Shown: positions 1-3,000 of the stretch, one piece after another
Numbering within the stretch: position 1 is the first letter of the stretch
Layout of the letters: every line of letters begins with the position of its first letter
UHGV virus genome: UHGV-0130101
Strand: one strand, 5' to 3'
Length of the DNA: 17,225 nt
From: a virus
Made by a program: the position numbers

Positions 1-3000
1 TCCAAATAGCTAAGGCTATTGCTTAGTAAGTAAAACAGTTGAGGTTGCCATGAATCCGTTTAACGCCATTACTTTTGCTGCATTGTGCGGGCCTCTGGCT
101 TGTCCTGCTGCTATGGCGCAGGAGTTCATCATCCAGCCAGCCCCTGTGATTGCTAAACCTTTTGAGTACTCTCCTTCTGTTGAGGAATTCTCACGCAAAA
201 TGGAAGAGGGTAAGGAGATCTTGCAAAAGTTAACAATTGCAGCAGATGACTACTATATCTGTTTGATTGATCTTAATAGCCAAGATGCTCGCGAGTTTGT
301 TTCCAAAAACGGGACAGATACGACAGAGGCATGCGAAATGTTCCTGCGTGCTTTTGAAGAAGAAGTGAAGCGTACAATTGAATCGCCTCTGCCTGAATTT
401 ATCAGGTCAGAACTGAAGGTTTACTGGCGTCATATTGCTAAAGCTCGCTCATCTGTCACTCGCCTTAACAATTACATAAAGAGCATATTTAAAGAAACTG
501 TTACTTTTAGCGGGCGCGCGGATCTTGCTGGAATTGCAGCACTAGCTAGTCACACATCAAATAAGCTAAAATCGATGCAATTTCACTAACCGATAGCGGA
601 CGACCATGCATCTAGAAGTCTCTATTAATCCAGAAACTAGAGCTGAATTTTTTGATGAAGTTTTTCTCAAATTCCCGGAGCTAGAGTCTTCTATCATTGA
701 TGATTTCAAGAGATACAAAGCAACCGGTGAGCTTCCGCATTATTTCGGTAGGGACGTTGCGTATACTCAGCCTTATGGTGCTTTTCGGGCTGGGTTGATG
801 CATATCCATCTTTGTCTACCGCCAAACAAGTTTCCCGAGAAACTTCCACAACCGGATAGGGTCTGCAAGAAAGGTGATCCTGATAATGATGCTTGTCTTG
901 TGTATGTCCAAGGTGAGCTTTATGAGAATAAATATTCACTCATTGCTATTATGTATCCCGATGCACATGAAAAAGCAAGAAAACATGATGTGATGAGCTA
1001 TCTGGCGCGAATTGCCCAGAATTATAAAGATGAAAACTAACCCGCCGAAGCGGGTTTTTTGTGAGATTAGTTATTTATTTTCCTATTTGTTCTTACCCTC
1101 TCCCATTCAATTCTGCCTTCTTCACGCCGTTTATCTATATATTCAGCAAGATCCTGAATGTTGATGCAGCGCTTTGCTTTCTGTGATGTACCAACACGAT
1201 AAGTCGGGATCGGCAACTGGCATGCATTTGCTTTCGCTTCTGCTGTGTTAGGGCTCATACCGAAATACTTTTGGCATACAGCTGACAGCTCAATGTTTGG
1301 GGTATTGAATTCAGCCATCAGTAAAAACAAGGTGTTCATAATTTTCTCCATCAAAACCGGCTGCACCCGGGAAAATCATAATTCTGTGCTGGTGGCAGGA
1401 ATTAATTTCTGCCAGATAGCGGAAACATATTTTGCCTGATGACGGGCATCAGCCAGGGCGTTGTGCCGTTCGCCATCGAAAGGCATGTCCATTTTGGGGT
1501 CGAATCCGATGGAACGCCCAAGCGTAACGATCGTGCGTACATCATGGTCATTCCAGTATGCCCACGGGCAGATTTGTCCTGCTCGCTCATAAGCTCCACG
1601 TAAAATTACGTTGTCGAAGGTGGCTCCGTTACCCCAGACTTTTAAATATTTCGTATTGTCTGCGTGCCGGTTAATGAAATGATTTAGTTCTGAGAGAGCA
1701 TCGCTGATCGACAAAGTATCATCAATACAGATTGCAGCTCGTGCTTCAGGGCTTTGTTTCAACCACCACAGGATGGTATCGCCGTCAGGTGTAGCTCCTT
1801 GCCCCATAGCACTTTCTAGGCTAACAACCGTATAGAATTCTTGTCCGATGTCTCCGGTTTCTGGAGTGAAGAACACCGCGCCAATGGAAACGATCGGTGC
1901 ATCCTTATTTTTCCCCATCGTCTCAAGGTCGATCATTAAGTTGTTCATCACTTCACCTCCTGCGGCGGTTCCGGTAGCGGCATCCAGTGAGTTGCTTGCT
2001 CAATACCATTACCCGGCTTAATCGTTGCATCTCCGCGCCGAAAGGTGCTTCCGGTATAGCGTGCGGAGCATATTAGCGGTTCAACCAGAGAGCTATCGAA
2101 ATTCACCGAAATAAGCACGTTCTGGCCCTTTTCAGGCATTCGATCACTATAGCTTATCCAACTATCCGGAGTTCCCGGAGAGTTGCCATTTACATCGAAG
2201 TTTGGCTCTGCGTCCTGAACCAGGAGGATGTAACCATTCTTGGCTGTATCAAGTTCTAACGCCTCGGTGACGGTGCCGAAATAGCGATTACCTAAATCAG
2301 CATCACAAGTGCTTACATCAATGGAAACTTCCATCCCTTCGATTAATTCTGGCAAGTTGTAAGTTTGGCTTACAGGTTCTGCTTCCAACGATGCCAGTGC
2401 AATCCGTGCCAGTTCTTCCGCTTCTTCTGCTGGCAGTACAACGTTGCTACCCGGTCCATATGTTTCGCGCCACTGCTGGATTGTCAGCAGGCGTTCTTTG
2501 GTAATAGTGGTCATTTGTTATGCCTCAATATACAAAATCTGTTTTAAATTCATGGTTACATTCTGGACAGCATGTTTCGTAACCTTTTATTTCTTCGCAT
2601 GCCTGTTTTGCTCCAGAAAATTCCCAGAAATCAGCATCGCAAAGCAGATCGAAATTGTGGCCGCATTTGGGGCATTCGGTATCAAGTGACAGACTCCAGT
2701 AAGCAGGTGTGTTTTTGTCCATATCACTCTCCTTTCCCCTGAAGCATGGCGTTGCTCCGCTCTATACCATCCAGCGCGATTCGCAGTGCCTGAATTGTGG
2801 TAATGCTATCGTTTGGGGCTATTCCATATCGCTCGAATACAGCGATATGACCGCGCATAATCTCAGGCGTAAGCTCTTTGTAAGCATAAGCAAGAGACTC
2901 TGATGCATTATCCGGCACTACCGGCGATGGCTGTTTAGCTTCTAAATCAGCTATTCTGTCAACCACGGAATCGACAGCATCTGAAAAGCCGAACCAGTTG

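Follow-up and report, generated by a model that had tools for sequence, protein, structure and literature searches.

The 17,225-nucleotide (nt) stretch of UHGV virus genome UHGV-0130101 analysed in this study (hereafter the window) opens with a cassette of ~1.15 kb that is composed of a promoter, two genes which we call A and T, and a terminator, with no gene other than these two (Table 1). In a first-pass annotation it had been described as a cargo operon in which a YafO-like toxin is preceded by an uncharacterised partner that is not of the YafN or RelB type, and our analyses supported that description. The pairing proved to be conserved across the loci inspected and recurs in phages of the gamma-proteobacteria. 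The limits of the two co-oriented open reading frames (ORFs) on the + strand and the 16-nt spacer between them were confirmed, as was the lower G+C content of the operon (42.6% versus 48.7% in the remaining window). The cassette also has the terminator ascribed to it, a bidirectional hairpin with a G+C-rich stem of 7 bp (1039–1056) followed by a T-run, which is common to the cassette and the PrtN-family gene that converges on it. The suspicion that the operon extends beyond the left edge of the window held for its promoter only (TTGACC-17-TAGACT, at window positions -33 to -5, just left of position 1), as there is no further gene of the operon on that side and the next gene is the chromosomal zur.

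Table 1. Position, strand and character of the features of the A-T cassette and of the gene next to it in the window.
Feature	Position	Strand	Description
Perfect inverted repeat AATAGC-taag-GCTATT	5-20	+	Between the -10 box and the ribosome-binding site; candidate hairpin of the 5' untranslated region (5'-UTR) or operator
Shine-Dalgarno-like GAGG	41-44	+	Read from the sequence; 5 nt 5' of the ATG of gene A
Gene A	50-589	+	179 residues; unnamed family, PHROG 8416; hydrophobic N-terminal segment, disordered linker and helical bundle
A codons 1-33	50-148	+	Signal-peptide-like hydrophobic segment with AMA/Q, and QPAPV motif
Gene T	606-1040	+	144-residue YafO-family toxin; clade-specific N-terminal extension of ~15-28 residues; predicted RelE/HigB (BECR) fold
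Intrinsic terminator, bidirectional	1039-1062	.	AACCCGCcgaaGCGGGTT and T-run; closes the cassette
PrtN-family gene, convergent with the cassette	1067-1366	-	Pfam PrtN (pyocin activator), 84.8 bits; excisionase position

Profile matches and a structural model both indicate that T is a bona fide YafO-family protein with a predicted BECR fold, and that it represents a distinct clade of 144-residue proteins having an N-terminal segment that is absent from the YafO of Escherichia coli K-12. T matched the Pfam family YafO_toxin (PF13957) with 76.5 bits (cutoff 25, E = 1.9e-21) over profile positions 1–100 of 101, and BLASTP aligned its residues 29–141 with K-12 YafO at 36% identity (E = 2e-19). In an alignment of 21 sequences, ranging from K-12 YafO to relatives at ~50% identity, twenty columns were invariant, including F47, G48, H66, I67, H68, R85, L98, V99, Y100, G103, P118 and H121, and the motifs by which T had originally been recognised as YafO-like (FGRD, HIHL, LVY.QG and P..H) lie in such columns. 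The AlphaFold2 model of T, which was built from 34 homologues, had a mean predicted local distance difference test (pLDDT) score of 95.7 and matched the RelE/HigB toxins; thus, the first-pass annotation, which had made its proposal dependent on a YafO match or fold, was borne out on both. No solved YafO structure was found, and T had no match in PADLOC-DB v2. Family membership and the conserved residues suggest that T acts as an mRNA endonuclease toxin.

Comparable searches with partner A produced no significant match in Pfam or NCBIfam and only a chance-level one in PADLOC (E = 0.017). In the PHROGs database A and T belong to phrog_8416 and phrog_1651, respectively, both of which are listed as function unknown. 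The model of A (pLDDT 78.9) predicts a helix at residues 6–24, a disordered linker at ~25–43 and a bundle at 44–174 that is all-helical and had generic structural matches only. A word-indexed search returned 22 close clusters of A proteins, all from the Enterobacterales; a profile that included the neighbors of Pseudomonas YafO genes added Pseudomonas members, and an exhaustive search of 1.84 billion representatives with a hidden Markov model (HMM) identified 88 clusters, 51 of them at E ≤1e-10 and nearly all of 165–190 residues. One representative of the family, P0139 (471 residues), is a repeat protein of the conserved LRxxE...AKARS region, with eight tandem matches to core profile positions ~75–132. 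A-family proteins are named “hypothetical” in all sources save one, an automatic UniProt name of “Lipoprotein” for the homologue in Pseudomonas phage YMC11/02/R656. In addition, the GenBank record of phage PhiR40_1 (locus L002, 222–761) names A “YafM antitoxin”, for which the record gives no evidence; that label collides with the name of an unrelated K-12 gene, yafM. A borderline likeness of the A family to influenza B HA2 and coiled coils in a sequence-profile search of the PDB (E ≥0.0026) was set aside as compositional. The HA2 matches (E = 0.003–0.02) align the region after the hydrophobic N-terminus of A with the long helix of HA2, which probably reflects coiled-coil composition, and the two proteins are similar in layout, each having a hydrophobic tip and a helical hairpin. 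A comparison of the charge and isoelectric point of A and T was uninformative, and partner A was not found to be described in the literature, which was searched by phage name and by accession (protein, PHROG), among others.

A YafO-clade gene was found directly 3' of A in every A-family gene whose neighborhood was inspected (>25 loci), at spacings of -38 (overlap) to +16 nt that are consistent with translational coupling. Such pairs are present in Serratia (in a tail-gene region), in Pantoea, and in Phytobacter/ENNIH3, the last of these at the zur-side prophage end as in E. coli. The result was similar from the side of the toxin: 19 of 21 loci retrieved with T as the query had the pair, among them loci of Photorhabdus, Xenorhabdus, Pseudomonas, Stutzerimonas, Vreelandella and a metagenome-assembled genome labelled Phycisphaerae, and an HMM of the enteric A proteins matched 18 of the ORFs upstream of those toxins. 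Two remote members of the A family were likewise paired with a YafO_toxin gene. Among phages, A-T pairs were identified in coliphage HK639 (genes 17 and 18, tail region), in Pseudomonas phage YMC11/02/R656 (gp093 and gp092, after the CI repressor) and, as a more distant and weaker case, in the Klebsiella phage-plasmid pJN2-26. Genes 16–18 of HK639 (locus L037, 1030–2938) form a moron with an annotated terminator between the tape-measure and minor tail genes, in which an annotated lipoprotein gene precedes A-T and RefSeq labels the toxin only.

The two toxin-query loci that had no such pair are informative in different ways. One (L022) has a decayed toxin remnant, the sole decayed copy that we observed. 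The other (L031) encodes a YafO of the K-12 type that lacks the N-terminal extension, and the gene upstream of it was assigned to the Phd/YefM antitoxins by a Pfam match; taken together with the extension-bearing toxins, which are accompanied by A, this indicates that the type of partner tracks the toxin clade. Between E. coli and Pseudomonas the A proteins have 16–20% identity and the T proteins 46–55%, and antitoxins usually diverge faster than toxins. The contexts in which the cassette is found are unrelated, including a prophage attachment (att) end, tail gene clusters, an immunity region and tailocins (PMC4684702). Papers on Pseudomonas prophages and tailocins report an apparently solitary “YafO toxin” among the cargo genes (PMC10449497, PMC4684702). 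Our results demonstrate that these solitary-looking toxins have an unrecognised A partner upstream.

A further characteristic of A is its hydrophobic N-terminus, MNPFNAITFAALCGPLACPAAMA/QEF in the window. The signal-peptide-like appearance that had been remarked on is real and family-wide: a crude hydropathy and motif scan and inspection by eye both found an uncharged hydrophobic stretch within the first 25–40 residues of nearly all members, usually preceded by Lys/Arg and followed by A-x-A, and with a lipobox-like STSC in one Pseudomonas subgroup. In the protein of the window there is no basic residue before the hydrophobic run, which comprises 12–18 hydrophobic residues, and there is an AMA/Q site. 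Within the enteric A proteins conservation is highest at residues 1–33, which have a mean pairwise identity of 0.80, as compared to 0.27 in the linker and 0.56 in the bundle, and which are as highly conserved as the toxin. The 5' codons of A differ from those of Pantoea by 13–14 synonymous and 4–5 non-synonymous changes, and this abundance of synonymous changes indicates that selection acts on the N-terminal peptide and not on the DNA; a DNA-level cause of the conservation, such as an att site or an RNA element, was rejected for the same reason. In the Pseudomonas subgroup, whose members are ~30% identical overall, K4, P8, L10, A13, A14, A16, L17, G19 and Y21 are invariant. Moreover, the pairing with YafO is kept by a few members whose N-terminus is amphipathic (Vreelandella L027, P0156) or not hydrophobic at all (pJN2-26), which speaks for a partnership that functions in the cytoplasm. 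Based on this protein-level conservation, the subgroup invariants and the members without hydrophobicity, the N-terminus of A appears to differ from ordinary signal peptides.

Several E. coli chromosomes contain the window at 100% identity, as do two temperate phages, PhiR40_1 and PhiR55_1. In E. coli E138 the A-T pair lies first inside a lambdoid prophage of ~42 kb, adjoining the chromosomal zur. The first-pass annotation had the cassette occupying the site where an integrase would be expected. The attP-proximal position of this cargo slot agrees with that only loosely, and the integrase is not missing: a tyrosine integrase is encoded at the far prophage end, where it abuts dusA (locus L033, 7720–10253) and has a DinI-like gene beside it. 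The phage is therefore a dusA-integrating one, dusA being a known integration hotspot, and its integrase, being at the opposite prophage end, is adjacent to the cassette across attP in the circular phage. The cassette thus has attP on one side and the PrtN-type, excisionase-like gene on the other in the circular genome. Carriage of the cassette is limited to 48 of 5,426 complete E. coli genomes (~0.9%), and the exact A protein is encoded on at least 1,000 contigs of E. coli, Salmonella, Citrobacter and E. albertii, always under the name “hypothetical protein”.

Homology to the backbone of sister phages breaks off ~64 nt from the phage end (within 80–100 nt) and is regained with the PrtN-family gene. 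In two of these phages, PhiR47_1 and phiSTEC1575-Stx2k, the same slot contains a PanA(DUF4065)-PanT pair with its own promoter (loci L040 and L041, 1–1352), which resembles the cassette in slot, orientation, promoter and antitoxin-then-toxin layout. The proteins of the two pairs are unrelated; the sister-phage protein matches Pfam DUF4065 and A does not. The break in homology and the PanA-PanT pairs indicate that the slot exchanges two-gene toxin-antitoxin modules. Upstream of PanA-PanT there are three LexA-box-like motifs (CTG-N10-CAG), including the near-perfect CTGTGTATATGTACAG, whereas the YafO cargo has none. In Phytobacter/ENNIH3 relatives a Gp49(HigB-like)/HTH_37 pair, or a remnant of the helix-turn-helix (HTH) gene, is located directly 5' of A-T (locus L009, 200–863; locus L007, 2875–3192), and toxin-antitoxin cargo is thus stacked at the prophage end in those relatives.

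As for the expression of the cassette, the sequence GAGGT upstream of gene A is retained across the enteric homologous loci. The inverted repeat near the left edge of the window has counterparts at a matching offset in homologous cassettes (GATAAC-acaa-GTTATC in Pantoea and ATCGAC-N9-GTCGAT in Serratia), so that the start codon of A is preceded, at ~-45 to -49, by a palindrome with 6-bp arms (loci L004, L011, L003, L007–L009, L012). The arms differ by lineage (AATAGC/GCTATT, GATAAC/GTTATC, ATCGAC/GTCGAT) while the symmetry is retained. The promoter spacer contains a second palindrome, which reads AACCGCGGTT in E. coli but ATAACTccAGTTAT in ENNIH3. The palindromes may represent a pair of operators or a hairpin of the 5'-UTR, and the repeat at 5–20 is equally compatible with an operator and with such a hairpin. 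A LexA box, which had been thought worth seeking left of position 1, was not found: the 431 nt upstream have no CTG-N10-CAG, and their best match to the 20-nt consensus was 12/20. Control of the cassette by LexA as part of the SOS response was rejected on that basis. A scan of positions 1–1500 with Rfam identified nothing above chance, and hence no evidence of an RNA antitoxin.

Considering these findings together, we think it probable, though some way from certain, that A-T is a minimal mobile toxin-plus-antidote cassette in which a YafO-clade RNase is combined with an antitoxin of a new family, A. A lambdoid prophage that integrates at dusA would carry the cassette at its attP-proximal end, as cargo expressed in the lysogen, and free T would arrest translation by acting as an mRNA endonuclease, as suggested by its family and conserved residues. 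A would keep T inactive and would represent a new antitoxin family that replaces the Phd/YefM-type YafN, a role to which the strict co-occurrence of the two genes and the minimality of the cassette point. As a toxic RNase spreads in a two-gene cassette that has no other conserved ORF or known RNA, the antidote would have to be A. Probably, the conserved N-terminal hydrophobic helix and linker of A dock on T and its clade-specific N-terminal extension, and the helical bundle would provide stability, oligomerisation or regulation. By analogy, the pair may serve to retain the prophage, or to abort infection if host expression is shut off by a superinfecting phage. The occupation of the same slot by PanA-PanT, the faster divergence of A, the swap of partner with toxin clade and the purifying selection on the N-terminus of A were all counted as support for this proposal.

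Several of our observations weigh against this proposal. Most N-termini of the A family are Sec-signal-like (basic n-region, 10–15 hydrophobic residues, A-x-A), one homologue bears the automatic name of lipoprotein, and if the bundle of A is exported it could not neutralise a cytoplasmic RNase in the classical manner. No DNA-binding domain (ribbon-helix-helix, HTH, AbrB or Phd) or known antitoxin fold was recognised in A, and T scored below the NCBIfam equivalog cutoff for K-12 YafO (PRK09885; 75.8 versus 153), placing it in a separate clade whose activity may differ from that of K-12 YafO. The points concerning A would fit the main, though unlikely, alternative, in which A is an exported protein (periplasmic, or a lipoprotein) or is anchored to the inner membrane at its outer side, and the pair is an envelope-linked defense or exclusion module with no classical binding antitoxin. 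A could then act alone in superinfection exclusion, or T could be controlled indirectly, for instance if only the cytoplasmic precursor of A restrains T and export sets the lifetime of the antitoxin. Export would account for the persistence, in most of the ~88 clusters, of a hydrophobic N-terminal stretch that has a basic n-region and an A-x-A or lipobox-like site, even where the sequence is not conserved. It also agrees with a charge distribution of A that favors an N-in, C-out topology, with the lack of a cytoplasmic antitoxin-type domain, and with the frequent encoding of envelope proteins by the tail-region morons of prophages. However, the N-terminus of A is far more conserved in the enteric proteins (80%) than normal signal peptides are, the n-region in the window lacks a basic residue, some members keep their YafO partner without having a hydrophobic N-terminus, and the gene of a toxic RNase would be unable to spread in a cassette of two genes unless the antidote were encoded within it. 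Quite unlikely, in our estimation, is a combination of the two ideas in which A is an “export-timed” or membrane-tethered antitoxin whose N-terminus is both a Sec or lipoprotein signal and a toxin-binding element, a dual role that would explain conservation far beyond the needs of targeting. In that case only the cytoplasmic precursor of A would restrain the RNase and free A would be continuously removed by export and not by Lon/Clp proteolysis, so that once expression of the cassette is blocked, whether by phage-induced host shut-off or by loss of the prophage, the antidote would run out and the toxin would be freed. If true, this would be a new route to a labile antitoxin and a direct link of the secretion pathway to toxin activation.

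The remaining alternatives concern the activity of T and the ancestry of A. We consider it improbable that T is inactive or non-toxic alone and that the pair is a benign or regulatory accessory module of the phage. Its 36% identity to K-12 YafO and sub-equivalog score would allow for this, as would the clade-specific extension, which could in principle be self-inhibitory, but the twenty columns that are invariant from K-12 YafO to the Pseudomonas-level relatives (51% identity) include His66/His68, Arg85, Tyr100 and His121, the model of T is very confident and toxin-like, and the family is intact in many taxa, the decayed copy at L022 being the only one. There is also the possibility, to which we attach almost no credence, that A is a highly diverged antitoxin of the YafN/RelB/Phd type and the locus a conventional yafNO-like one. 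The antitoxin-first order and tight spacing are as in yafNO, and GenBank phage records label A “YafM antitoxin”, a label without evidence. Against this, a BLASTP comparison of A with YafN gave E = 1.7 and hhalign a probability of 0.3%, A has no Pfam PhdYeFM match whereas the outgroup partner at L031 does, and A is predicted to be an all-helical bundle of twice the length of YafN. Sequence, profile and predicted fold thus effectively exclude a relation to Phd, YefM or YafN, in agreement with the earlier statement that the upstream protein has no recognisable antitoxin fold.

Comparison with characterised systems further defined the cassette. The K-12 YafN-YafO system (dinB-yafN-yafO-yafP) shares with T the PF13957 family and the FG.D, HIH, LVY.QG and P..H motifs, and yafNO resembles the cassette in being antitoxin-first with nearly abutting genes. 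However, yafNO encodes a 97-residue YafN of the Phd/YefM type as opposed to the unrelated, 179-residue helical-bundle protein A with its hydrophobic N-terminus, and the cassette has an extra N-terminal segment in T, no LexA box and no dinB context, and has its own promoter and terminator as prophage cargo. The cassette is therefore not a yafNO locus, as both the partner family and the regulation differ. Like type II toxin-antitoxin systems in general, it consists of two small co-oriented genes that abut or overlap and are kept as a pair, although those systems have a recognisable antitoxin DNA-binding domain and none was detected in A. In Vibrio cholerae, HigA2 neutralises HigB2 via an N-terminal disordered segment, and the domain order of HigA2 parallels that proposed for A. 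The higBA operon differs from the cassette in having the toxin gene first and an HTH DNA-binding domain in HigA2, for which A has no detectable equivalent, and the sequence identity of T to RelE/HigB-family mRNases is 6–17%.

Two further systems combine features that are reminiscent of A-T, and both are treated in a survey of BECR toxins (Gerdes 2025, PMC11980606). The TAC modules (HigB-HigA-SecB-like) also consist of a toxin with a RelE/HigB fold and a partner with a hydrophobic extension, and the aggregation-prone extension of the antitoxin ties its stability to the protein-export chaperone machinery. The cassette differs in having no SecB-like chaperone gene and in the N-terminal position of its hydrophobic segment, which is not a C-terminal chaperone-addiction tail; a TAC-like link of A-T to export is, by this analogy, a conjecture. 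ToxM-ToxR is presented in the same survey as the first possible membrane-associated type II toxin-antitoxin system (Gerdes 2025, PMC11980606), and it resembles A-T as a module that has a BECR-fold toxin and a predicted membrane or envelope component. Nevertheless, in ToxM-ToxR it is the toxin ToxM that bears a transmembrane domain and ToxR is a conventional antitoxin, whereas here T is soluble and the hydrophobic segment belongs to its partner A. The cassette is thus not a TAC, Panacea or ToxM-ToxR system. The survey gives YafO as an antitoxin-first family of ~1,000 members, and partner A is not described in its text (PMC11980606).

Beyond the PrtN-family gene, the protein encoded at 1376–1951 on the - strand of the window has an Rv2179c-like 3'-5' exoribonuclease domain (251.8 bits). 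It is called “exodeoxyribonuclease VIII” in several phage records, which is likely a propagated misannotation.

To our knowledge, YafO is among the least-studied toxins of the RelE superfamily, and only its YafN-paired K-12 version has been characterised. Partner swapping is common among the toxins of toxin-antitoxin systems, which limits the surprise of finding a different partner here. Nevertheless, a whole YafO clade in the temperate phages, phage-plasmids and tailocin clusters of the Enterobacterales and Pseudomonas uses a partner family that had not been described, and the conserved signal-peptide-like element of that partner is an unusual feature for a presumed antitoxin. If A is exported or membrane-bound, the cassette would represent an unusual, envelope-linked control of a cytoplasmic RNase. 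If A is the antitoxin, as we propose, its family would be a new one among antitoxins, and the clade would clearly exemplify an exchange of partners that is tied to the N-terminal extension of the toxin.

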